From the NCBI GenBank assembly GCA_022508735.1, contig JAFLUQ010000002.1:2045-34044 (forward strand): 32,000 nucleotides of DNA, given 5' to 3'. Positions 3,001 to 17,501 of this stretch are shown in pieces. Origin of the DNA: Oscillospiraceae bacterium (lineage in GTDB: Bacteria > Bacillota > Clostridia > UMGS1883). The position numbers and the translations under genes are program-made. The notes below the pieces were generated by a model that was given only the letters and a program-made list of their open reading frames with translations, had not been told where the DNA came from and searched no databases. Position 1 is the stretch's first letter; every line of letters starts with the position of its first letter.

Positions 3001-3390
3001 GAGTACTCCGCTACTGTTGAGAATATCACATCCGGAAAAATAATATCTGTATGGGTGAGCGCGTATAATACTGATGGCAATAGCGAAGAAAGTAAACATC
3101 AACGCATAATATCCGCACCGGCGGATGGCTCCGCAATGCTTGTTGTTACGTCTGCCAAAGACAATTGTGTAGAAGTTAAACCTGTAAACTATGCAATGGA
3201 AAATGGCGGCAAAGTTATTCTCGCGGTATACGATTCTGATGGAGAACTAATACAAGCACTTACAAAAAATGTTTCAGACACAGTTATATTTGAAAATGTA
3301 GATATAAACGGTTATAAAATCAAAGTAATGTTATGGAACAGCGTAAACGAAATGTCGCCATTGTCAAATTATACAGAGCTTGATCTGTAA
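1..3390 (+). CDS. Large cell-surface/secreted protein with N-terminal BspA-type leucine-rich repeats; 5' end lies upstream of the window
   Basis: Frame 1 is open from nt 1 (IGEKAFSNCTRLNNV...). The first ~130 aa are ~23-aa units of the form IGxxAFxxCxxLTxVxIPxSVTxI, as in the LRR_5/BspA type. A long Gly/Ser/Asn-rich middle and Ig-like-looking C-terminal modules follow. A hairpin terminator lies downstream. Confidence 0.8.
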   Translation: MGEKAFSNCTRLNNVNIGNSVKNIGNYAFYNCRSLTNVIIPDSVTSIGNNAFSDCRSLTNVTIPDGVTNIGGGTFDECTSLTRVTIPDSVTNIDRYAFAGCTGLTSVGIGNSVKSIGYRAFDKCNKLTDVYYSGTEAQWNNISIGDYNDYLLNATIHYNSTAFSEVVNNVTINGRGTAYGWFRTLDKNGNTVANKNITYYIDGAGPYTGKTDNDGYICVEINNVTNSKSYTVHISGDGLQEIERNLNVTVKPIEFSSTYEATTKLGASVGIGIGVGGSIGNLEAEAEVAKIGADGSNKKGLSITQEYKGNKNKLSITARENSAVAISAKAGLFAGAKATGLAGVEASVGDVSGKASLGTTVGVTYEDDDFNINDTDDVWNLSKFMLSVFLDNMNSNAASRYVVNKLINAPVSSYSRGNTASLSAGANLGIIEADVVGVKTSATLGGIDASSVFSYSAERKNDNSVKYKSSITTDAGYKLLDISVGGKVSDDYKASTGTSAFGGSFINNALELQAKNDGSGKLSELALISKKNDESNIFWTHKTRTDKYKISFKDNAANTVADKYSKLCDFSNGNKGFFGVNEMNMAVNTIINSNEQGLYSTTHEYEQGLDFDISASIQLLAKIGGSVGLSGIEGYEYESESGFFNNNTIYLQSQSDIEREVNNRFISVGDIINSTKKEMADFLSSCWDSAIGWIGDATDSMVKASQAAVGWVGNQSSNVKNWFIDITHPTDRVESMSILAIDDEVSLFSTSSIATTVGNPYIISVTDESGTEVTDFTENPLLLMLEYTQAQLNAAGISDIKDIAVYYWDEDRCVYVYMGGELDRANMRIETEIIKPGQYILAADNCPPAVTEFKTSDNGSMPNISAVVSDLSGIVDFNFMIDGETVVNMDNLKDYYDFTTAEFIYPITNKLAEGAHTAEIYAADSAGNELNPPAMLRFTINNKAPSIDGVSELPNTISGSIEMSAQVSGDDISSVLLNIREEDALGNSTYTSYVMTKQDGEYSATVENITSGKIISVWVSAYNTDGNSEESKHQRIISAPADGSAMLVVTSAKDNCVEVKPVNYAMENGGKVILAVYDSDGELIQALTKNVSDTVIFENVDINGYKIKVMLWNSVNEMSPLSNYTELDL

Positions 3391-3410
3391 AAAGTGATTC
3401 ATATATAGCA

Positions 3411-3446
3411 AGGGCTATGGAACCTGTTTCCATAGCCCTTTTTATA
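3411..3446 (+). terminator. Rho-independent terminator of the LRR protein gene
   Basis: AGGGCTATGGAA (3411-3422), loop cctgt, TTCCATAGCCCT (3428-3439), followed by TTTTTAT. Confidence 0.8.
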
Positions 3447-3882
3447 AAAAAATTCACATGATGAGTTGATAACTATAAACATATAAAACTAAGACAAAAG
3501 TAAGTTTCGGTATGACTGAGGGCTGAACAGCGTTGGTAATTCCTGTGATGGAGCATTATATAGGAGACAAGCGTACAAAATGACTATATTTGACATTAGT
3601 CTGTCTGAGACGGATGCCTTTTTGATAGCATTATAATAGAGGGAATATTTACGCTTTACATTTCCAGAACTCTTGCGGAGCAAATGGATGGAACTATCGC
3701 CGCACAGTATATTGATCCATTTAAAGGAGAGAAGAAAGGTAAATAAAACGGACAACCATCGGTAGATGGCCGCCCGTGATAGTAATGCTATATCATATCT
3801 TCAATACCGCCTTTTAGGCGGTGAGCATATGCTGCCACTTCCATAGGATGCTCAAACCGCCTGTTCACTGGTGGTTATGATT

Positions 3883-4380
3883 TTAATAATACTTCTTACA
3901 ATCCTTCAAATCCGTGACGGTGCGAAGCGCTTCACCAAATCTCTGGAAATGCACGACCTCTCTCTCGCGAAGGAACCGGATGGCATCTATAACGTCCGGG
4001 TCGTCGGCAAGGCGGAGGATATTGTCGTAGGTAGCTCTGGCCTTCTGTTCGGCAGCCATGTCCTCGGTCAGGTCGGCAATTACGTCGCCCATAGACTGAA
4101 TTGTGGCGGCGCTCCATGGAACGCCTGCCGCATTGACGGGATAGACGCCTGTGCCGTGATCAACATAGTAGTCGGCAAAGCCGCCCTTCTTGATCTCCTC
4201 TTCAGAGAGTCCCTTTGTGAGCTGATGCACGATGGTGCCGACCATTTCAAGGTGGCCCAGCTCCTCGGTGCCTATATCGTTCAGTATGCTCTTTGTGACC
4301 TCAGTGGGCATGGCAAAGCGCTGGCTGAGATAGCGCAGGCTTGCGCCAAGCTCGCCATTTGGGCCTCCGTACGGCAACTG
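3883..4380 (-). CDS. cotJC: CotJC-like manganese-catalase-family spore coat protein, 5'-truncated (3' portion of a gene split by prophage insertion)
   Basis: The translation (Q)LPYGGPNGELGASLRYLSQRF...DIGTEELGHLEMVGT...AAGVPW...IADLTEDMAAEQKARATY...DDPDVIDAIRFLREREVVHFQRF is collinear with CotJC/Mn-catalase motifs. It begins at the equivalent of about residue 27 of full-length CotJC (after ...LIEQ). An in-frame TAG sits at 4381-4383 directly upstream, and only a TTG at 4375-4377 is available as a start. Confidence 0.8.
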   Translation of the reverse strand, partial: QLPYGGPNGELGASLRYLSQRFAMPTEVTKSILNDIGTEELGHLEMVGTIVHQLTKGLSEEEIKKGGFADYYVDHGTGVYPVNAAGVPWSAATIQSMGDVIADLTEDMAAEQKARATYDNILRLADDPDVIDAIRFLREREVVHFQRFGEALRTVTDLKDCKKYY

Positions 4381-4395
4381 CTAAATAGGTGGTTA
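4375..4395. other. Prophage/host junction (attL or attR) inside cotJC
   Basis: cotJC homology ends at about 4380. The recombinase stop codon (complement TTA) is at 4393-4395, so the crossover must lie in this ~15-20 bp interval. Confidence 0.6.
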
Positions 4396-5853
4396 AATAA
4401 AAAGATTTACCGCGATTTCATCACGTTTTTTAACTATGTTTGAGACAACTGTGCGGACGGCGGTGTTCTTTTCAACGTTACTTTTATCCGGATCCTTTAC
4501 GATGGAAAGGACATCGGCAATCTTCAGGCGTAGTTCAGCGTCACGGTCCTCAAGGTTGGGGCTTGGAGCGGGCTTAATCTGTTCCTTTATGCTTTCAATC
4601 TCGGCGGTCAGTTTGGCCTTGTTGGTGCTGTACTCCTCAAGAGTATCTATACCGGCTTCATATGCCTCACGGACACGGCGCAGGCGTTGCTCAGCGTTAT
4701 ACAGCATTGCAGCGTACATATCTGCATCGGACTTTTCGGGTAATTCTGTTTTTTTATATGCCACTGATACGCCATCGGTCGCACCGTTAGAGAAGTTTTC
4801 AAGTGCGGAAATAACATATTGACTGATTTTTTTGGCATTTATGCTTCCATTACCGGGACATGTGCCCTTGTTTTTATTATTGCAGTAATAATTCCCCGCG
4901 CAGTTCACAACTATACCGCCACACTCGTCGCAGTGAATCAGCCCAACGAGCCAGTGACTTATGCTGTCTCGTGGTTTTATATACTTGCGGTACTGGATCT
5001 TTATTGCCTTAAGCTTCTCCTGAGCCTGATCCCACAGTTCGACGCCTATAAGCGGCTCATGGGTACCGTCCACGATCATGCTGTCAGGATTGCTGTAGTT
5101 ACGTGAAGTCGACCCAGTGGGCGTCCAACGTATTTTCCCGATATACACAGGATTATTGAGCCAGTATTCCACGGTTCGGTTCTCTATTTTGCTTCCTCGG
5201 TGGGTGCGCACACCCAAAGCGTTCAACTCTTTGGCTATACCGACCATGCCTTTACCGCCGACAAACTTTTCAAAGGCCGCGCGGACGACGGCAGCTTCCT
5301 CCGGCACGATCTCAAGCTGCTTGTTTTTCATTGTATACCCGAAAGGGGGAATAGAGAGCGGTTCTCCACGGCGGGCCTTTTCGGTCATGCCGCGCTTGAC
5401 CTCTTCGGCAAGGTTTATGCTATAGTATTCGTCCATGGCCTCGATAAGGGCCTCTATCAGTATGGACATCTTATCATCGCCCAAAGACTCGCTGACGGAT
5501 AGCACCTCAATTCCAAGCTGTTTACGGAGCATAGATTTATATACAATGCTATCCTCACGGTTACGTGCGAAGCGGCTGAACTTCCATAATATGATGGCGT
5601 CAAAGGGCTTGGGCTTACTTTTTGCGAGACCTATCATCTGCATGAATGCCGGCCGCTTCTCAGCCTTGCGGCCGGAGATACCTTCGTCCATAAATATGTA
5701 GTCGCCGGGAATAACAAAGTTGTTCCGTTTGGCGTAGTCGCGTATCACTTTGAGCTGGCTTTCGGGGCTATATTCAACCTGATCATCGGTGGACACGCGG
5801 ATATAAGCCGCTGCGATACGCACAGAGGATCCTCCACTTGAATTTTTAGGCAT
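4393..5853 (-). CDS. Large serine recombinase (phage integrase)
   Basis: N-terminal resolvase catalytic domain (AAYIRVSTDDQ...SPESQ...FSRFARN), a recombinase domain, a Cys-rich zinc ribbon (CDECGG...CAGNYYCNNKNKGTCPG) and a C-terminal coiled coil. ATG at 5853 lies 10 nt after AAAGGAG. The upstream GTG at 5862 in the ORF track is too close to the SD. Confidence 0.92.
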   Translation of the reverse strand: MPKNSSGGSSVRIAAAYIRVSTDDQVEYSPESQLKVIRDYAKRNNFVIPGDYIFMDEGISGRKAEKRPAFMQMIGLAKSKPKPFDAIILWKFSRFARNREDSIVYKSMLRKQLGIEVLSVSESLGDDKMSILIEALIEAMDEYYSINLAEEVKRGMTEKARRGEPLSIPPFGYTMKNKQLEIVPEEAAVVRAAFEKFVGGKGMVGIAKELNALGVRTHRGSKIENRTVEYWLNNPVYIGKIRWTPTGSTSRNYSNPDSMIVDGTHEPLIGVELWDQAQEKLKAIKIQYRKYIKPRDSISHWLVGLIHCDECGGIVVNCAGNYYCNNKNKGTCPGNGSINAKKISQYVISALENFSNGATDGVSVAYKKTELPEKSDADMYAAMLYNAEQRLRRVREAYEAGIDTLEEYSTNKAKLTAEIESIKEQIKPAPSPNLEDRDAELRLKIADVLSIVKDPDKSNVEKNTAVRTVVSNIVKKRDEIAVNLFI

Positions 5854-5882
5854 AAAAAACACACTCCTTTGTTAAAATTTTA

Positions 5883-5912
5883 TTGACAATTGGGGAGTGT
5901 ATGTGATACAAT
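5883..5912 (+). promoter_or_regulatory. Near-consensus sigma-A-type promoter pointing away from the recombinase gene
   Basis: TTGACA (5883-5888), 18-nt spacer, TGa-TACAAT (5904-5912, extended -10). Confidence 0.55.
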
Positions 5913-5918
5913 TTTATT

Positions 5919-5990
5919 GAAGTGTGGGTTTGTATTCATATACACTCCTGCTCAACGGCTTCGGTGTTGGCGCACCGGGGCCGCTTTTTT
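5919..5990 (+). ncRNA. Candidate ~70-nt small RNA (promoter-to-terminator unit) carrying an anti-Shine-Dalgarno-like sequence
   Basis: It lies between the 5883-5912 promoter and the 5957-5990 terminator. No SD-preceded ORF is present. It contains UCAUAUACACUCC (5936-5948), which is complementary to the recombinase SD region. Confidence 0.35.
5957..5990 (+). terminator. Rho-independent terminator (plus-strand orientation)
   Basis: GGCTTCGGTG (5957-5966), loop TTGGCG, CACCGGGGCC (5973-5982) gives a 10-bp stem with two G-U pairs. GC and TTTTTTATTTATTT follow. There is no U-tract in the minus orientation. Confidence 0.65.
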
Positions 5991-6019
5991 ATTTATTTAA
6001 AACAAGCTTGCACAATTCA

Positions 6020-6976
6020 TTAGTTGTTTCTACACATATGCAGAGAATACGAGCCACCCTTCTTCTCCCGAGATATAATATTTTCTTTTTCTAATTCTCT
6101 TAATAGTTTCTGAATATCTGATTTTAATTGAGGGTGAAAATATGAATATATATTTTTTTGTAAAATTCCATCGTTACCATCGATAGTTTTCACTAAATCA
6201 TTTTTTAATGTTCTCTTTTGACGATACAATTCAACATAACTTTCATAATTATTCGTCAAATCATTTTTCAGTTTTTCAACATCATCTATATAGCTACGAG
6301 GCGTACTGTTACTGCTATCACTGAACATCCACATATCCTCAAAATAAAAGGTTCCGCCTTTAGTTCCGCTGCAAAATTTCCTGAATCTGTAAAAGACATC
6401 TATAGCTTTATCGCATAACCGTATATGCTCATCTACATCAAAACCAGGATATGCGACAGCTTCTGAAGATAAATTATAAATGTTGTTCTCATATATCGAA
6501 ATTTTTTCGGAATTTCGCTGACTGAACTGAAAACTTAATTCTCCGTCTCTATAAGAGCGGTGAGGCGTAGACGAATGTTCTTCAATAGCTTTTCGTTTGC
6601 CTAATTCTATTAAATATGGGACTTCTTCGTCAGAAATGGGTTTGCCATCGGCCCGAAAAATTATATTTTTGCCGTGTATGTATATGTCAGAGAAAGTGTC
6701 TTTTTCTGTTTCTTCTACTGTATCAGTGTCATTTGATGTAATATCATTTTTTTCTTCAGAAATAAGTTTATTTTTCCTCAATAACAAATATGATGGCACT
6801 CCAAATAGAGAGCATACAAAAATGAGTATAAGTCCAGAGAGTATTATTTCTGATAAAGAAGCGTTGAAGGAAATAAGCCTATTGATCGTGCCAATGCTTA
6901 AGAAAATTCCCACAACACACATAATCAGAAAACATATGCCTATTATAGTTCGTATTATTTTTATTGTTTTTTTCAT
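6020..6976 (-). CDS. Orphan membrane protein: two N-terminal TM helices, acidic linker, ~230-aa soluble region ending in a winged-helix-like segment
   Basis: 318-aa ORF, visibly much more AT-rich than flanking phage DNA. TM segments IIRTIIGICFLIMCVVGIFLSI and IILSGLILIFVCSLFGVPSYLLL. C-terminus ...LQKNIYSYFHPQLKSDIQKLLRELEKENIISREKKGGSYSLH resembles a wHTH. It starts 14 nt downstream of the preceding repressor gene, so it is probably in the same operon. Confidence 0.75.
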   Translation of the reverse strand: MKKTIKIIRTIIGICFLIMCVVGIFLSIGTINRLISFNASLSEIILSGLILIFVCSLFGVPSYLLLRKNKLISEEKNDITSNDTDTVEETEKDTFSDIYIHGKNIIFRADGKPISDEEVPYLIELGKRKAIEEHSSTPHRSYRDGELSFQFSQRNSEKISIYENNIYNLSSEAVAYPGFDVDEHIRLCDKAIDVFYRFRKFCSGTKGGTFYFEDMWMFSDSSNSTPRSYIDDVEKLKNDLTNNYESYVELYRQKRTLKNDLVKTIDGNDGILQKNIYSYFHPQLKSDIQKLLRELEKENIISREKKGGSYSLHMCRNN

Positions 6977-6990
6977 ATTCGCACACTTTC

Positions 6991-7641
6991 TTATACAACG
7001 TCACTCTGGAAGGCTACAGCCTTACCGAGGATATGAATATGGTCAAGCTGCTCGTCCCTATATACAAGCGGGGGATATTTGGTGTTTTCTGCCACAAGAG
7101 TCAACTGTTGCTGTTCCTTATCGTAGTATACACGCTTCAACGTGGCTACGTCATCAATTACGACAGCGGCAATTTCGCCATCAACTACTATAGGTTGTTG
7201 GCGTATAAAAGCTATATCACCGTCCATGATTCTTGCATTTATCATGCTGTCACCCTTGGCTCTTAGGCAAAAGTCCGCTCGGATATCCGCGCCAGCTTCA
7301 ACATAGCTTTCCCTGTCCTCATTGGTAAATATAGGTTCTCCACAGGCAATTTCCCCGAGAAGAGGAAATTTTTTTGTTTCTATAGGAAAGATATTGTCAT
7401 ATTTGAATACAGAAGTTTCGCTTTTGGTAGACTTGGGATTTTGCTCGTCACTTCGACCAGTAAGGTAATCTAAAGATACATTAAACAAATCTGCTAACAT
7501 TTGCTGCTTCTGATAATCCGGTTTTGCATGGCCGCGCTCCCATTGACTGATAGTGCTGGAATCTACAAATAGTTTCTTTGCAATATCTTTCTGCTGAAGA
7601 TTATTAGCTTTACGAAGAGTCTTTAATCTTTCTGCAAACAT
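6991..7641 (-). CDS. XRE-family HTH + S24 peptidase (LexA/CI-like) repressor, copy 2
   Basis: HTH LQQKDIAKKLFVDSSTISQWERG. S24 Ser/Lys motifs are AKGDSM and ATLKRV, with a possible UmuD-type Cys-Gly cleavage site (IACGEP). ATG at 7641 follows AAAGAGGTG; the track start at 7674 lacks an SD. Confidence 0.88.
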   Translation of the reverse strand: MFAERLKTLRKANNLQQKDIAKKLFVDSSTISQWERGHAKPDYQKQQMLADLFNVSLDYLTGRSDEQNPKSTKSETSVFKYDNIFPIETKKFPLLGEIACGEPIFTNEDRESYVEAGADIRADFCLRAKGDSMINARIMDGDIAFIRQQPIVVDGEIAAVVIDDVATLKRVYYDKEQQQLTLVAENTKYPPLVYRDEQLDHIHILGKAVAFQSDVV

Positions 7642-7726: not shown

Positions 7727-8362
7727 TTACACCCGGCCTCTTACTTCGACAACCTTGCCGAGAATAATGACGGGCAACGTTTCTATATCCTTCGGGGTAT
7801 AGAAGGTAGGCTCATAAGAACAACTACTATTTAAAGGCACAAGCATTATGCCTGTGTCTTTTTTTAATACTTTTTTTACTGTGGCAAAATCACCATTTAC
7901 CAAAACGACGGCGATCTCTCCATTTTCTATATAATCTTGTTTACGCACAATTACAGTATCCCCGTTAAACATTCGAGGTTCCATGCTGTCGCCTTTGATT
8001 TTCAAAGCGAAGAACTCGCCTGTAGCGGCCATTTTAGTGGAAATTTCCTCGTAGTCGATTATATTTTCTTCAGCATAGATGGGATATCCGGCGCGAACAA
8101 TGCCAAGAACGGGAATTTTTACACCTTTTAATTGACTATAGGGGAGAGATGGCGTGCCGCTTTCTAATCGAACATCACTACGCCCCAATATGTAATCAAT
8201 TGATGCATTCAGCAATTCTGAGAGTCGGATAAGGCTCTCATTATCAGCTTCATATTTGCCAGTTTCCCAACCTGAAAGTGTTGCCTGTGTAACACCGAGC
8301 AGCGATGACAACTCTACCTGCGTTAATTTTAATTCTTTTCGTAGCTCTTTAATACGATTCAT
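7727..8362 (-). CDS. XRE-family HTH + S24 peptidase (CI/LexA-like) prophage repressor, copy 1
   Basis: HTH LTQVELSSLLGVTQATLSGWETG. Ala-Gly site (VRAGYP), IKGDSM and ATVKKV. It is divergent from a cro-like gene across a promoter/operator region. Confidence 0.9.
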   Translation of the reverse strand: MNRIKELRKELKLTQVELSSLLGVTQATLSGWETGKYEADNESLIRLSELLNASIDYILGRSDVRLESGTPSLPYSQLKGVKIPVLGIVRAGYPIYAEENIIDYEEISTKMAATGEFFALKIKGDSMEPRMFNGDTVIVRKQDYIENGEIAVVLVNGDFATVKKVLKKDTGIMLVPLNSSCSYEPTFYTPKDIETLPVIILGKVVEVRGRV

Positions 8363-8397
8363 ATGTTCACCTTCTTGCCGATATAAGTCTTGCTTAT

Positions 8398-8426
8398 ATT
8401 ATAAGCTAATTTTATATGTTTGTAAA
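8398..8426 (-). promoter_or_regulatory. Repressor-operon promoter (PRM/PL-like)
   Basis: Minus strand reads TTTACA, 17-nt spacer, TATAAT. It lies 36 nt upstream of the ATG at 8362. Confidence 0.65.
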
Positions 8427-8475
8427 TATGTAATTTATAAAAAGAAAGAAATATAAAGAAAATTTATAAATACTA

Positions 8476-8504
8476 TTGACAAACTCATAAAGTTGCTTTA
8501 TAAT
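8476..8504 (+). promoter_or_regulatory. Early lytic promoter (PR-like)
   Basis: TTGACA (8476-8481), 17-nt spacer, TATAAT (8499-8504). It drives the cro-like gene at 8549. Confidence 0.75.
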
Positions 8505-8548
8505 ATAAATGAACTTTATAAAAAATTGAAATGAGGTGACCTAAAAGA

Positions 8549-8737
8549 ATGACAGGAATAGAGAGAATTAGAAAGAAACAAAACATGACGCAGATCGAGT
8601 TGGCCAAACATATGGGAGTTACGCAGGCCAATGTGTCACAGTGGGAAAGCAATGTGGCGAAGCCCAGAGCAGAAAACCTCATAAAAATGTCCGTGCTTTT
8701 TGGCTGCACGATCGATGAGCTGCTGAAGGACGCGTAG
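8549..8737 (+). CDS. Cro-like XRE-family HTH protein
   Basis: 62 aa with MTQIELAKHMGVTQANVSQWES. SD GAGGTGA lies upstream. It is divergent from the repressor. Confidence 0.88.
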   Translation: MTGIERIRKKQNMTQIELAKHMGVTQANVSQWESNVAKPRAENLIKMSVLFGCTIDELLKDA

Positions 8738-8754: not shown

Positions 8755-8991
8755 ATGGATAAGGTACAAACAACAATCCGCCTGCCGTTTGATCTGAAAG
8801 ACAGATTACAACAGGAGGCGGACAGGCTTGAGACCGACGAAAGCGAGATTATAATTATGGCTCTAAGAAAATTGCTTTCCGATAAAGAAAATCAATGTTT
8901 ATCTTACGTAAAATTGGCAGGGCATTCTTTGAAGCCGAATAAAAACCGCGGCTATGGAACAAAAGAAGTTAGTCAAGGAAATCTTCAATAA
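8755..8991 (+). CDS. Ribbon-helix-helix (CopG/Arc-like) protein
   Basis: TIRLPFDLKDRLQQEADRL...SEIIIMALRKLL fits a beta-strand plus two helices. GGAGGTG lies 7 nt before the ATG at 8755. The C-terminal tail overlaps the convergent gene by 23 nt. Confidence 0.6.
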   Translation: MDKVQTTIRLPFDLKDRLQQEADRLETDESEIIIMALRKLLSDKENQCLSYVKLAGHSLKPNKNRGYGTKEVSQGNLQ

Positions 8992-9481
8992 ATTTTTTTC
9001 TTTCAAGGCAATCTATTTCTCGAAGTATATCTACATTGAATATGTCTTCCAACTTTAAATTCGTATATATACGATTTAATATGGTCAAGACTTTAAGACT
9101 GACCTCATATTCGCTGCGAATACCCCAAAAGAAGTGAGCTAATTCCTCTATCATGCTTGAGCAGACAATTTCAGGATGATTGATATTCCATTTATAAAAT
9201 GGGTAGACAATTATTGGAGTAACAATAGCCAATTCATTGGGTTCGAGTGTTATTGAAATTGTATCTTTATCTGTAAAAATACAAGTTACAAATAAGAGAT
9301 GATCCGTATCAACGAGAAGACCGTCGTTTTCCATCTGATCAGCAACTGCATTTACGCAGCAAGAGAAAAGATTCGCTATTTCGGCGGGAATATCACATGT
9401 GGCTACAACGAGTACATGGGCTTTCAAGCGAGGGTCAATAGATGGGACTACAATATCTTTTTTCGCTTCTATTAATGCCAT
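8969..9481 (-). CDS. Orphan hypothetical protein (170 aa), antisense to the early lytic operon
   Basis: ATG at 9481 lies 7 nt after GGAGGAA. The gene has its own consensus promoter and is AT-rich. I recognise no family motif. Confidence 0.7.
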   Translation of the reverse strand: MALIEAKKDIVVPSIDPRLKAHVLVVATCDIPAEIANLFSCCVNAVADQMENDGLLVDTDHLLFVTCIFTDKDTISITLEPNELAIVTPIIVYPFYKWNINHPEIVCSSMIEELAHFFWGIRSEYEVSLKVLTILNRIYTNLKLEDIFNVDILREIDCLERKKFIEDFLD

Positions 9482-9515
9482 GTGTTCATTCCTCCAATTT
9501 TTTACAATTTGATTC

Positions 9516-9544
9516 ATTATATCACAATATCTCTAAAAAGTCAA
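9516..9544 (-). promoter_or_regulatory. Consensus promoter for the antisense orphan gene
   Basis: Minus strand reads TTGACT, 17-nt spacer with TGa, TATAAT (plus-strand AGTCAA 9539-9544 and ATTATA 9516-9521). Confidence 0.65.
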
Positions 9545-14285: not shown

Positions 14286-16277
14286 ATGACACTTGGAAGT
14301 TTATTTGACGGAATTGGAGGCTTTCCCTTAGCCGCCACGATATCGGGGATAATGCCCGTGTGGGCATCAGAAATCGAGCCGTTTTGTATAGCGGTCACTA
14401 AAAAGCACTTTCCCAACATGGTACATTTAGGGGATATCACGAAAATAGACGGACGTAAGATCCCGCCCGTGGACATAATCACCTTCGGCTCTCCGTGTCA
14501 GAATATGTCCGTGGCAGGGGATAGAACGGGACTGGAAGGAGACCAAAGCCGACTGTTTTATGAGGCTATACGAATTATATACGAAATGAGGGAAGCGACA
14601 AATGGAGCAGCTCCAACTTACATTGTATGGGAGAACGTCCCAGGAGCCTTTTCCAGTAATGGAGGAAGAGACTTTCAGGCCGTGCTCTCGGAAGTCACAA
14701 AGGCCAATATTCCAATGCCTCGAAGTGGACGGTGGGCAAACGCCGGAGTGGTTCGAGGGGGGGCAATTACTTTCGCATGGCGGCTCCTCGACGCTCAATA
14801 TTGGGGAGTCCCCCAGCGTCGCAAGAGAATCTACGCTGTCGGAAGTTTTGGAAGCCGAAGTGCCGAAGAAATATTATTTAAGCCCGAAAGCGTGTCAGGG
14901 GATTATTCGCCGTGCGGAGAGGCGGGGCAAGGCCCTGCCGCCGCTACTGATGGAAGCGCTGAACAACATGATACAGCTCGGCGAAGCACAGTAGTATTTG
15001 ACGGTAGTCAAATAACATGTCCTACAAATAAAAGCAATCCTAATATTAACGCACAAGTACATACGCTATCAAAAACTAATGCAAATAGCGCTATCCTTTG
15101 TATTATCAACGATCGAGGCGGCGAGAGCATAACAGTTGAAAAAGATAGTATATCTCCCACGCTGAGAGCCCAGTCTCATGGGAATTTGCCTGTAGTGTGT
15201 GTTCGGGAACGATGCGGCTGTGAGGGAGGCGGAAAAGGGTGCTTAGTGCAAGAGAATATAACTGGAACGCTTGCTACGAATAACGACCAATTTGTTGTTT
15301 GTGCAGCGGGATTTTGCCCCGAGCAGTCAGCGAAAACTCGCGGAATTGGTTATGAAGAAGAAAAAAGTCCCACACTTAGGACTGGAGTTGTCCCAGGATG
15401 CATATATGCCATAGACCGTGCCGCCTTTAATCAGGGCACAAATGCACAGTGCGATTTTGAAATATCGGACAAAGGCATTGCTTCTACGCTTGTGGTTAAA
15501 GGCCCTTCGGAGGTGGCGTATGGGATTAGTTCTGACAACAGTAACGCCATGAAATCACCAAACCCGCACAGCGGCATTTATGAAGCAAAAACCGCCAGGA
15601 CACTGGATTGCAACGGCGGAAATCCATGCTGTAATCAAGGAGGAGTTGTAATAGTACAGCCTGCTTACGCCATTGGAAACGGACAGTCCAATCAAACGGG
15701 AACAGAGTTGTCTGATCGATCCGGAACATTGAACTGTATGCACGATCAACAGGAGGTTATATATCCTACTGAAACAAAATTTTGGGAAGCATATCAACAT
15801 CATGGCTATAGGCAAAGCGAAAGTGCAGGAACTTTAACAATGGGACAAAATGACCATGTGCGTGGAGATACGCCGATAATAACACAAAGCTATGGAGCGA
15901 ACTGCCGTAACGACACCTTGAACGAAGAATTATACCCGACATTGCAGGCAAAAGAAAGTGGCGGACAGTCTCTAAATTACAGTGGTGTATTACTTCAAAA
16001 AATATGGTGCTGGATAGCCCGTCGCCTTATTCCGCTGGAATGTGGCCGGTTGCAGGGGTATCCTGACCATTGGACCGACATAGGGCCGTGGACTGACGAT
16101 AAAGGCAAGTTACATAAAGAAAGCTCAGACACATCGCAGTATCGGGCGTACGGCAACAGTATTGCCGTACCATGCGGTTTGAGAGTTATCGGTGCTATTG
16201 CGGAATATGAGAGGAGTAAAAAACCATGCTTAACCACGTTACATTACAGGGCCGCATTACCCGCGACCCGGAATTAA
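14286..16277 (+). CDS. DNA (cytosine-5)-methyltransferase with an exceptionally long variable region (putatively multispecific)
   Basis: Motif I LFDGIGG, IV GSPCQ, VI ENVPG, VIII QRRKRIY, then IX/X (ECGRLQGYPDHW, YGNSIAVP). About 390 aa lie between motifs VIII and IX. Confidence 0.93.
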   Translation: MTLGSLFDGIGGFPLAATISGIMPVWASEIEPFCIAVTKKHFPNMVHLGDITKIDGRKIPPVDIITFGSPCQNMSVAGDRTGLEGDQSRLFYEAIRIIYEMREATNGAAPTYIVWENVPGAFSSNGGRDFQAVLSEVTKANIPMPRSGRWANAGVVRGGAITFAWRLLDAQYWGVPQRRKRIYAVGSFGSRSAEEILFKPESVSGDYSPCGEAGQGPAAATDGSAEQHDTARRSTVVFDGSQITCPTNKSNPNINAQVHTLSKTNANSAILCIINDRGGESITVEKDSISPTLRAQSHGNLPVVCVRERCGCEGGGKGCLVQENITGTLATNNDQFVVCAAGFCPEQSAKTRGIGYEEEKSPTLRTGVVPGCIYAIDRAAFNQGTNAQCDFEISDKGIASTLVVKGPSEVAYGISSDNSNAMKSPNPHSGIYEAKTARTLDCNGGNPCCNQGGVVIVQPAYAIGNGQSNQTGTELSDRSGTLNCMHDQQEVIYPTETKFWEAYQHHGYRQSESAGTLTMGQNDHVRGDTPIITQSYGANCRNDTLNEELYPTLQAKESGGQSLNYSGVLLQKIWCWIARRLIPLECGRLQGYPDHWTDIGPWTDDKGKLHKESSDTSQYRAYGNSIAVPCGLRVIGAIAEYERSKKPCLTTLHYRAALPATRN

Positions 16278-16688: not shown

Positions 16689-17501
16689 TTGAATGCTGTA
16701 ATCAAATATCCCGGATCAAAATGGTCTATCGCAAAATGGATCATAGACTTCTTTCCTCAGCACCACAGCTACTTGGAGCCCTTCTTCGGATCCGGCGCTG
16801 TGCTTTTCACCAAGAAGCGGAGCGCCATAGAGACGGTGAACGATCTTGACGGTGATGTTGTTAACTTTTTTGACTGGATAAAGAAGGATACCGAAAAACT
16901 GGCAAGAGCCATCTACTGGATACCCTATTCGCGAGAGGTATATGACAGAGCGTGCGAGGCACGGCACATGGAAACGGACAGTTTTCAGAGAGCCTGTGAT
17001 TTTTGCGTAAGAATGATGCAGGGTCACGGCTTCCGCACTAACGGAGGGAAGGTCGGATGGAAGAACGATGTACAAGGGCGAGAAGCTGCCTATGCTGCCA
17101 TTGGTTGGTGCAAAATGCCGGAAGTGATACTTGAAACTGCAGAACGGCTGCGAGGCGTGCAGATAGAGAACCGCCCGGCCGTGGAAGTTATATCACGCTT
17201 CAACTATGCAAATGTTCTGATTTACGCTGACCCACCGTATCTGCTCAGCACCCGGCACGGAAAACAGTATAAATGCGAAATGACCGATGCCGACCACGAA
17301 GAATTGCTTGAGGCATTGAAAGTGCATAGAGGGCCGGTGCTCCTCTCGGGATATGACAGTGACCTATATAACACTACTTTGCGTGGCTGGTACCGGAAGG
17401 AGATATCAACTATGGCACAGACCGCCGCCAAACGCCGAGAGGTTCTGTGGATGAATTATGAGCCGCCATGCCAGCAATTAGAAATGGAGGACACTACATG
17501 A
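16689..17501 (+). CDS. N6-adenine DNA methyltransferase (D12/Dam class)
   Basis: KYPGSKW, EPFFGSGAV (FxGxG) and the catalytic DPPY motif (IYADPPYL). TTG start with GGGGAGTGG upstream. Confidence 0.88.
   Translation: MNAVIKYPGSKWSIAKWIIDFFPQHHSYLEPFFGSGAVLFTKKRSAIETVNDLDGDVVNFFDWIKKDTEKLARAIYWIPYSREVYDRACEARHMETDSFQRACDFCVRMMQGHGFRTNGGKVGWKNDVQGREAAYAAIGWCKMPEVILETAERLRGVQIENRPAVEVISRFNYANVLIYADPPYLLSTRHGKQYKCEMTDADHEELLEALKVHRGPVLLSGYDSDLYNTTLRGWYRKEISTMAQTAAKRREVLWMNYEPPCQQLEMEDTT

Follow-up and report, generated by a model that had tools for sequence, protein, structure and literature searches.

The 32,000-nucleotide stretch of Oscillospiraceae DNA analysed here (contig JAFLUQ010000002.1 of assembly GCA_022508735.1; hereafter the window) holds the left part of a prophage on a 48-kb metagenome contig (ENA ERZ27293326), and the gene under study, orf318 (6020 to 6976, minus strand, 318 aa), lies in the lysogeny module of this prophage. 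Reading leftward on the minus strand from the genetic switch, the module comprises a CI-type repressor (7727 to 8362) with HTH_3 and Peptidase_S24 domains, which adjoins divergent promoters, a gap of 85 nt, a second LexA/CI-type repressor of 216 aa with the same two domains, referred to as S24#2 (6991 to 7641), a gap of 14 nt, orf318, a spacer of 166 nt and, as the final gene, a large serine recombinase, the integrase (int; 4393 to 5853). A Cro-like helix-turn-helix (HTH) gene (8549 to 8737, plus strand) diverges from CI. A first-pass annotation, made from the letters of this DNA, had noted that orf318 starts 14 nt past an XRE-S24 gene, between the integrase and the CI/Cro switch (7727 to 8737), and that it is conspicuously AT-rich, and both points hold. 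The GC content of orf318 is 0.322 (0.28 at third codon positions); S24#2 (0.415), CI (0.412) and int (0.486) are all richer in GC, as are the other 22 kb of the phage (0.494). A megablast search with the phage body returned no near relative.

The product of orf318 starts with a predicted transmembrane (TM) hairpin (6779 to 6949), followed by an acidic disordered linker, a family-specific domain and a C-terminal winged helix. Specifically, two hydrophobic segments with Kyte-Doolittle values above 1.6 were found at about residues 10-32 (TM1; 6881 to 6949) and 42-66 (TM2; 6779 to 6853), and the AlphaFold2 (AF2) model places helices at residues 2-36 and 41-75. Positive charges occur at both ends of the hairpin, and therefore an N-in/C-in topology is predicted, with the remainder of orf318 in the cytoplasm. 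The linker (residues 67-98; 6683 to 6778) has a net charge of -5 and a predicted local distance difference test score (pLDDT) below 50. The family-specific domain (residues 99-267; 6176 to 6682) consists of a beta-hairpin and eight helices, including one TPR-like hairpin, and the winged helix (residues 268-318; 6023 to 6175) was recognised by Foldseek and by the matches of relatives to Pfam winged-helix families. An AF2 model of the core, built on a 104-sequence alignment, reached a pLDDT of 93 and a predicted template modelling score (pTM) of 0.77, with a confident all-helical domain at about residues 99-267. Hydropathy, AF2 and Foldseek are therefore in agreement with the architecture that had been read from the translation in the first place. 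The public gene call starts from an internal TTG and gives a protein of 255 aa; we favour the 318-aa form because its N-terminal TM region aligns in the homologues P0002, P0004 and P0020. The Shine-Dalgarno sequence of orf318 is weak.

Searches with orf318 against Pfam, NCBIfam, PHROGs and PADLOC gave nothing meaningful; there was no match to PF06114 (Peptidase_M78), and orf318 is not an ImmA/IrrE metallopeptidase. Beyond the one TPR-like hairpin, the central domain matched nothing in Pfam, NCBIfam, PADLOC, PDB sequences, PDB folds or BFVD. A phmmer and profile search of PDB sequences returned only this hairpin, with scores inflated by repeat proteins, and weak MarR matches, while Foldseek, run with the full-length model against PDB and BFVD and with the core model against PDB, matched the winged helix alone. 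Matches to PCI (proteasome-lid) and Fic folds were dismissed, given their low probability, template modelling scores (TM-scores) below 0.2 and the missing Fic motif. Inspection by eye of the columns conserved among relatives revealed no HEPN (Rx4-6H), HNH, HD or HEXXH motif; an ExxH motif (E217-H220) is present in the family, not in the window copy. As far as can be read from its sequence, orf318 carries no catalytic signature and no toxin-like feature. In conclusion, structure and profile comparison placed the winged helix that had been suspected at the C-terminus, and assigned neither a defence function nor a routine one (PADLOC, Pfam and structure).

The winged helix was matched by Foldseek with a probability of 1.0 to those of MarR, ArsR, SlyA, BlaI and DsrD, over the last ~60 residues only and with a root-mean-square deviation of 1-3 Å. 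The C-terminal 50-60 residues of orf318 thus share the fold of MarR/ArsR/BlaI regulators, with a TM-score to the query of just 0.2-0.25; unlike MarR, orf318 has no dimerisation helices, its recognition helix is neutral, it is membrane-tethered and it carries an unrelated helical domain of 170 aa. Across the family the median charge is 0 for the recognition helix, +3 for the wing, +3 for the winged helix as a whole and -4 for the conserved core. With a recognition helix of net charge 0, DNA binding by the predicted winged helix is not evident, and binding to protein, as a scaffold, is just as likely. These data bear on an alternative that we consider improbable, namely that orf318 tethers phage or prophage DNA, or a host machine that handles DNA, to the membrane, in analogy to phi29 p16.7, which organises DNA there, or else is a lysogenic-conversion factor that targets host physiology and has nothing to do with other phages. 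A membrane anchor joined to a cytoplasmic winged helix with a basic wing would suit such a tether. However, the gene is placed on the lysogeny strand, away from the genes for replication; its recognition helix carries no net charge, the remaining domain is acidic, and no search disclosed any similarity to p16.7-type or partition proteins.

The protein had been described as an orphan, a description that no longer applies. A word-indexed search found 21 homologues at 30-39% identity to orf318, and a family profile run against 1.84 billion representative proteins recovered 978 clusters at E<=1e-3, of which 435 reached <=1e-10 and 215 reached <=1e-30; the only name given to members in the sources is 'hypothetical protein'. 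The conserved unit corresponds to residues ~95-318 of orf318 and is made of a beta-hairpin with the motif RxDGKPI(S/T)DEE(V/I)PYL, some eight helices and, at its end, the winged helix. Near-invariant residues fall in three parts, N137-P-x-F-H139-R140...E144, then G207-G208-x-I-Y-F212-Q-D214-x-W-E217-x-x-H220-N221-S222...F227-S228 and, towards the C-terminus, Q273, Y277, K305 and Y310. The conservation of the polar motif (N-P-x-F-H-R...E; D-x-W-E-x-x-H-N-S) points to a site for ligand binding or catalysis.

By contrast with the conserved unit, the N-terminus is exchangeable and may be a TM hairpin, a single TM segment, a TM2 domain, a holin-like TM segment, a zinc ribbon or a basic 'KARTTGRxKR' peptide. 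Among 93 relatives with at least 25 residues before the core, 62 have a strict TM stretch, others carrying TM2 or holin-like domains; in single-TM relatives, basic residues follow the TM segment, and a cytoplasmic core is predicted here too. Some members have a TM segment and then a TerB_N domain, which occurs on either side of the core, and others end in a C-terminal glycine-zipper and SHOCT tail. The TerB_N domains of P0062, P0075, P0095, P0096 and P0122 match the PADLOC model for SngA, a component of the Shango defence system, with E-values of 1e-10 to 1e-14; in these fused relatives the TerB_N part alone is matched, and PADLOC gave no match for orf318, P0016 or P0006.

All genome matches of the family fall in metagenome-assembled genomes of Clostridia or Erysipelotrichaceae, and 30 loci come from IMG/VR viral contigs; the family can thus be described as one of Firmicute prophages, chiefly those of gut Clostridia. 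A tblastn search with the window protein and two relatives against 50,697 GenBank phage records gave no match to the core, and the window core (residues 95-318) had none among PLSDB plasmids. Isolate phages hold only the 64-78-aa basic N-terminal module of P0016. This module (MRKPSIKRSIKARTTGR...) was found alone or on other proteins, in the same repressor-integrase slot, in 95 isolate-phage records from Enterococcus, Streptococcus, Paenibacillus and other phages, for example at 3001 to 3471 in Javan52 (L061), and in phiEf11 (L060, 3001 to 3201) it is a stand-alone gene of 66 aa, again in that slot. In 33 of 36 family loci the gene is AT-richer than its surroundings; we therefore dismissed AT-richness as a mark of recent acquisition in the window phage, as it is a family-wide trait. 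Literature searches on the family, on TerB-N and on membrane winged-helix superinfection-exclusion (Sie) proteins found nothing on this family.

Compared with the family consensus, the window copy replaces five of the most conserved residues: N137T (N in 92 of 99 members), E217M (E in 96/104), H220D (H in 91/103), N221S (N in 99/103) and F227R (F in 93/102). It retains the hydrophobic core, G207-G208, Y211-F212, Q273, Y277, K305 and Y310, in a frame of full length. These replacements, together with the weak Shine-Dalgarno sequence, would be expected if the window copy were a decaying or neofunctionalised relic, its open reading frame (ORF) intact and the functional site of the family lost. We give this explanation little weight, since the frame is complete, the core residues are kept, the AF2 model is confident and about 5-10% of family members vary at the same five positions. 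Nevertheless, because the conserved motif is lost, this copy is not the best representative of its family and the value of the window is lower.

To define the genomic setting, about 60 loci were collected; the counts that follow were made after collapsing identical proteins and refer to relatives with enough flanking sequence. In 27 of 32 relatives a same-strand HTH, S24 or M78 gene ends within 700 nt upstream (median gap 22 nt, three overlapping), and in 20/24 a same-strand tyrosine or serine integrase lies within 4.5 kb downstream, so that the repressor-integrase position is kept in about 85% of distinct loci. The upstream gene is a Peptidase_M78 gene placed after an HTH repressor in 9 loci, an XRE-S24 gene in 8 and an HTH-only gene in 10; a protease function, S24 or M78, is therefore found upstream in 17 of 27. 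Where cargo is present (PIN/antitoxin, Phd, HicB, DUF4160/DUF2442 or Abi_2), it is always 3' of the family gene. Identical copies of P0016 were found between differing repressors and integrases, and the TerB_N fusions occupy the same slot, with no Shango-type helicase or ATPase among their neighbours; the interpretation of these fusions as Shango systems was dismissed for want of such partners. Exceptions to the rule are the loci L016 and L039, in which a recombinase lies upstream and GIY-YIG and SprT-like genes are neighbours. The members in these two loci start with a zinc ribbon, and the gene order is serine recombinase, DUF1413 gene, family member, GIY-YIG and SprT-like/TPR genes, a different and possibly non-phage mobile context. 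Another deviating case is a weak relative in L020 (5941 to 6762; 27% identity, TM segment and helical domain, no winged helix), which is off the usual lysogeny slot and directly precedes the tape-measure gene in a contractile-tail module.

The regularity of this setting allows orf318 to be seen, in the main rival to the reading favoured below, as an accessory component of the lysogeny switch, which, tethered to the membrane as an adaptor or sensor, would modulate the repressor or the inactivating protease (S24 or ImmA-like M78). Such a component could sequester or present the repressor or the protease, or couple envelope or cell-state signals to induction. We regard this explanation as possible, if doubtful. 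It draws on the place of the family gene directly past the repressor or protease gene, at times overlapping it and ahead of toxin-antitoxin (TA) cargo, on the frequency of upstream proteases, on the resemblance of the cytoplasmic TPR-like hairpin and winged helix, with their neutral recognition helix and acidic domain, to a protein-binding scaffold, and on a very wide distribution combined with conservation of core and polar motif. On the other hand, the gene is dispensable, in that it is missing, or replaced by one for an unrelated protein, in phages whose repressors are close relatives; it pairs with three repressor/protease designs and with both tyrosine and serine integrases; and the family is AT-rich and mosaic, as cargo is. 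The ImmR/ImmA switches (ICEBs1 and phi105-type) and the LexA/CI S24 modules are the family's upstream neighbours, orf318 itself being neither a protease nor an XRE repressor. No third component is known for S24 or ImmR/ImmA switches, and our literature searches found none. A bolder form of the same idea, that the family represents an unrecognised, membrane-tethered third component of S24- and ImmR/ImmA-type switches in gut Firmicute prophages, whose helical/winged-helix module with its conserved N/H/R/E...D/E/H/N site senses an envelope, metabolite or infection signal, seems to us rather unlikely. If true, repressor cleavage would be gated, and induction or superinfection immunity would answer to membrane events and not to RecA alone.

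A further alternative had been put forward in the first-pass annotation, in which the self-cleaving S24 regulator and orf318 form a dedicated, damage- or infection-triggered pair. Several features of S24#2 are compatible with a functional self-cleaving repressor. It matches PF01381 (9e-13) and PF00717 (2e-23), both above gathering thresholds, and phrog_4, transcriptional repressor (4e-41); its ATG start is preceded by a good Shine-Dalgarno sequence; and it has a dyad of Ser132 (GDSM) and Lys169 (TLKRV) and a predicted UmuD-type cleavage site at C100-G101 (IACGEP). For CI, with which it shares 33% identity, cleavage is predicted at A91-G92, and the dyad is Ser126 and Lys163.

The regulatory signals, however, are found at CI. 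The CI-Cro intergenic region (186 nt, 21% GC) contains near-consensus divergent promoters, a leftward promoter-like site at 8426-8398 (11/12) and a rightward one at 8476-8504 (12/12), and the switch (8382 to 8520) includes five 17-bp palindromes, TATAAR-N5-YTTATA, of which there is no other such cluster in the window. Overlapping the divergent promoters, these palindromes are presumed to be the operators of the switch. The sole strong leftward promoter and all five palindromes lie upstream of CI, whereas upstream of S24#2 there was no operator palindrome and the best promoter-like site scored 9/12. The first terminator-like structure past orf318 is a GC-rich hairpin at 5956 to 5983; its T-run is on the plus strand only, so that minus-strand read-through into int would be possible. 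From the short gaps, the absence of a convincing intergenic promoter or operator and the absence of a terminator before 5956-5983, we infer that S24#2 and orf318 are co-transcribed, and a single CI-S24#2-orf318 operon read from the CI promoter would be the most economical reading.

Relatives of S24#2 are likewise informative. Thousands of homologues exist at 55-69% identity, and in other Clostridia prophages they are the sole repressor, beside a divergent cro-like gene. The locus L054 encodes a repressor 61% identical to S24#2, and in front of its serine integrase stands the gene of a non-homologous 293-aa protein (5830 to 6711) of the same build, in which a pair of TM helices is followed by an acidic linker of low complexity and a C-terminal domain bearing a YH...C...CxxC motif. 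This is a non-orthologous replacement within the slot; L057, with another S24#2-like repressor, has no family member there. Most loci of the S24 type have a single CI, namely the S24 gene that precedes the family member and stands next to cro. Co-evolution of S24#2 with the family was considered and dismissed, as S24#2 and CI are equally (~35%) identical to the upstream S24 genes of family loci. Additional regulators between CI and the family gene are seen in several other loci (a 118-aa HTH protein in L064, of the L064/L065 loci, the stacked HTH genes of L010, and also L012); the arrangement of the window is therefore not unique, yet not the rule.

Against this background we consider it unlikely that S24#2 and orf318 form a self-contained module in which a self-cleaving regulator restrains a toxic membrane effector until damage or infection occurs, in the manner of abortive infection or a TA system. 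The 14-nt spacing, the intact dyad and UmuD-like C-G site, the recurrence of second regulators and the locus L062, where a 50%-identical S24#2-like gene is followed by a TerB_N fusion of the family, speak in its favour. The module would, however, lack a promoter better than 9/12 and an operator palindrome of its own, orf318 shows no toxin-like domain, pore-like feature or PADLOC match, and, if the CI promoter drives the operon, orf318 would be on in the lysogen and not derepressed by damage. The proposal of a special, damage-triggered pair is therefore unsupported, because the relatives of S24#2 act as sole repressors and because it has no promoter or operator of its own; the upstream partner of the family is whichever repressor or protease the phage uses, and repressors of the S24#2 type at 55-69% identity have a membrane protein without homology to the family behind them, or no such protein. 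Most likely, S24#2 is a second LexA-like repressor, reflecting an extra immunity or regulatory specificity or module shuffling, and not a dedicated sensor for orf318.

The slot between repressor and integrase had also been pointed out as a site of exclusion genes, and inspection of two reference layouts confirmed this. In phage TP-J34 of Streptococcus thermophilus the order is crh (cI), metalloproteinase, ltp and int, with cro and ant divergent, and Ltp is an experimentally established superinfection-exclusion lipoprotein (PMC3952083). In Sfi21 (AF115103) it is orf127, orf122 (with a metalloproteinase motif), orf203 and int. Gene order being the same as in TP-J34 and Sfi21, the family therefore occupies the Sie slot. 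Ltp, Sfi21 orf203 and lactococcal Sie2009 resemble orf318 in slot and strand (repressor, optional metalloprotease, gene, integrase), and orf318 would share with Ltp and orf203 the character of an envelope-anchored (through two TM helices, in its case) accessory gene expressed in the lysogen. HTH-type helical domains are reportedly used for binding in Ltp. Defence genes co-transcribed with the repressor in the lysogen are also found in lambda (cI-rexA-rexB) and in mycobacteriophage Sbash (gp30/31), and Rex- and Sbash-type systems combine a membrane part with a cytoplasmic part that senses nucleic acid or protein. There is no homology between these and orf318, which would join anchor and putative sensor in one polypeptide and has no ion-channel-like multi-TM partner. 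TerB-type modules, finally, have been proposed as membrane-surveillance parts of defence systems (bioRxiv 10.1101/2025.09.30.679545). TerB_N is what SngA of Shango has in common with the fused, membrane-anchored relatives; orf318 itself is without it, and the family core matches no PADLOC model.

All together these comparisons lead us to favour, with a probability of about 0.4, the hypothesis that orf318 is a prophage-encoded factor protecting the lysogen, by superinfection exclusion or by an early-acting defence, at the inner face of the membrane. As third gene of a leftward lysogeny operon (CI, S24#2, orf318 and then int), orf318 would probably be made in the lysogen from the repressor promoter. 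Its constant part, helical domain and winged helix, would be tethered to the cytoplasmic face of the membrane by the exchangeable N-terminal module and would bind something that appears there upon injection by another phage, possibly an ejected protein or the tape-measure end, the incoming DNA or a host entry factor; such binding would block the establishment of infection. We favour protection because of the fixed place in the repressor operon, the membrane anchor, the AT-rich, mosaic and accessory character of the gene, its replacement within the slot, the TA and abortive-infection (Abi) genes nearby and the TerB_N fusions. The exclusion module suggested at the outset is hence consistent with slot, membrane anchoring and AT-rich, moron-like character, and finds no counterpart among the defence models of PADLOC.

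Several observations weigh against a protective function. No homology of orf318 to a known Sie, Abi or defence protein was detected (no Sie match in PHROG, Pfam or PADLOC, and a hhalign probability of 10% for orf203 against the family). The functional parts of the known examples face outside, in Ltp as a lipoprotein on the exterior of the cell and in orf203 as the outward C-terminus of a multi-TM protein, whereas the bulk of orf318 is predicted to be cytoplasmic. The position first after the repressor or protease, often with translational coupling and before any TA cargo, would suit a function in the switch just as well as one in defence. The TerB_N fusions come without the helicase and ATPase partners of Shango, and orf318, lacking E217, H220, N221 and F227, may work differently or not at all. 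The anatomy of orf318, the size of its family and a conserved position and orientation are shown by these data, whereas expression in the lysogen, the cytoplasmic topology and protection with its mechanism are inferred. Lysogeny modules with accessory genes in the Sie slot are a known kind of arrangement; the protein family, the conservation of its position and its predicted cytoplasmic mode of action are new.

Although abundant, the temperate phages of gut Clostridia have hardly been studied. The present family comprises at least 215 robust clusters at 50% identity, is absent from Pfam, PADLOC, GenBank phages and plasmids, and has a fixed place in the lysogeny operon. Should its members prove to act in exclusion or defence, a new, widespread Sie/defence family would have been found which, in contrast to Ltp-type proteins, works from the cytoplasmic face of the membrane; should they modulate repressor or protease instead, control of prophage induction in the gut would gain a new layer. 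Under either reading, the fixed position is a simple handle by which many variants can be found and tested.

Some further features of the prophage deserve mention. Directly past the recombinase lies an ORF similar to Mn-catalase/CotJC (3883 to 4392), which lacks the first ~28 profile positions and starts 15 nt past the integrase stop, with in-frame stops between. The truncation beside the integrase indicates that the prophage is inserted in a cotJC-like gene, whose N-terminal remainder should be found at the far prophage end, beyond the window. In L063, a locus with a TerB_N fusion, the integrase is 43% identical to that of the window and the adjoining Mn-catalase gene 62% identical, in the same arrangement; both phages therefore share an attachment target, within a serine-integrase lineage.

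The spacer between orf318 and int (5854 to 6019) contains, on the plus strand, a promoter-like site, TTGACA-18-TACAAT with TG, at 5883-5912 (11/12), followed by a strong hairpin with T-run at 5956-5993 (-31.6 kcal/mol, z -4.5). Promoter and hairpin could give rise to an RNA of ~75 nt antisense to the int leader. A Rfam search of the window gave no match. The int leader itself (5860 to 5948, minus strand) can form a 13-bp hairpin (5948-5936 / 5906-5894, z -4.4), the 3' arm of which, CATACACTCC, can also base-pair with the Shine-Dalgarno sequence of int, GGAGTGTG. Such alternative pairing suggests that translation of int might be gated by the position of the transcript start. Two direct repeats of TCAATAAAATTNTANCA lie in the same spacer (5904 to 5920 and 5870 to 5886), with no other copy in the window.

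On the other side of the switch, an AT-rich ORF of 182 aa (8969 to 9517; GC 0.348) runs on the minus strand, opposite the early rightward genes; its sole match is phrog_33355 (function unknown; 5.5e-16), and it adds a second gene of moron-like character to the immunity region. According to the contig annotation, the early region also encodes a C5 DNA methylase of 663 aa (14286 to 16277) and a D12-class adenine methyltransferase (about 16689 to 17501), which probably serve as anti-restriction functions.

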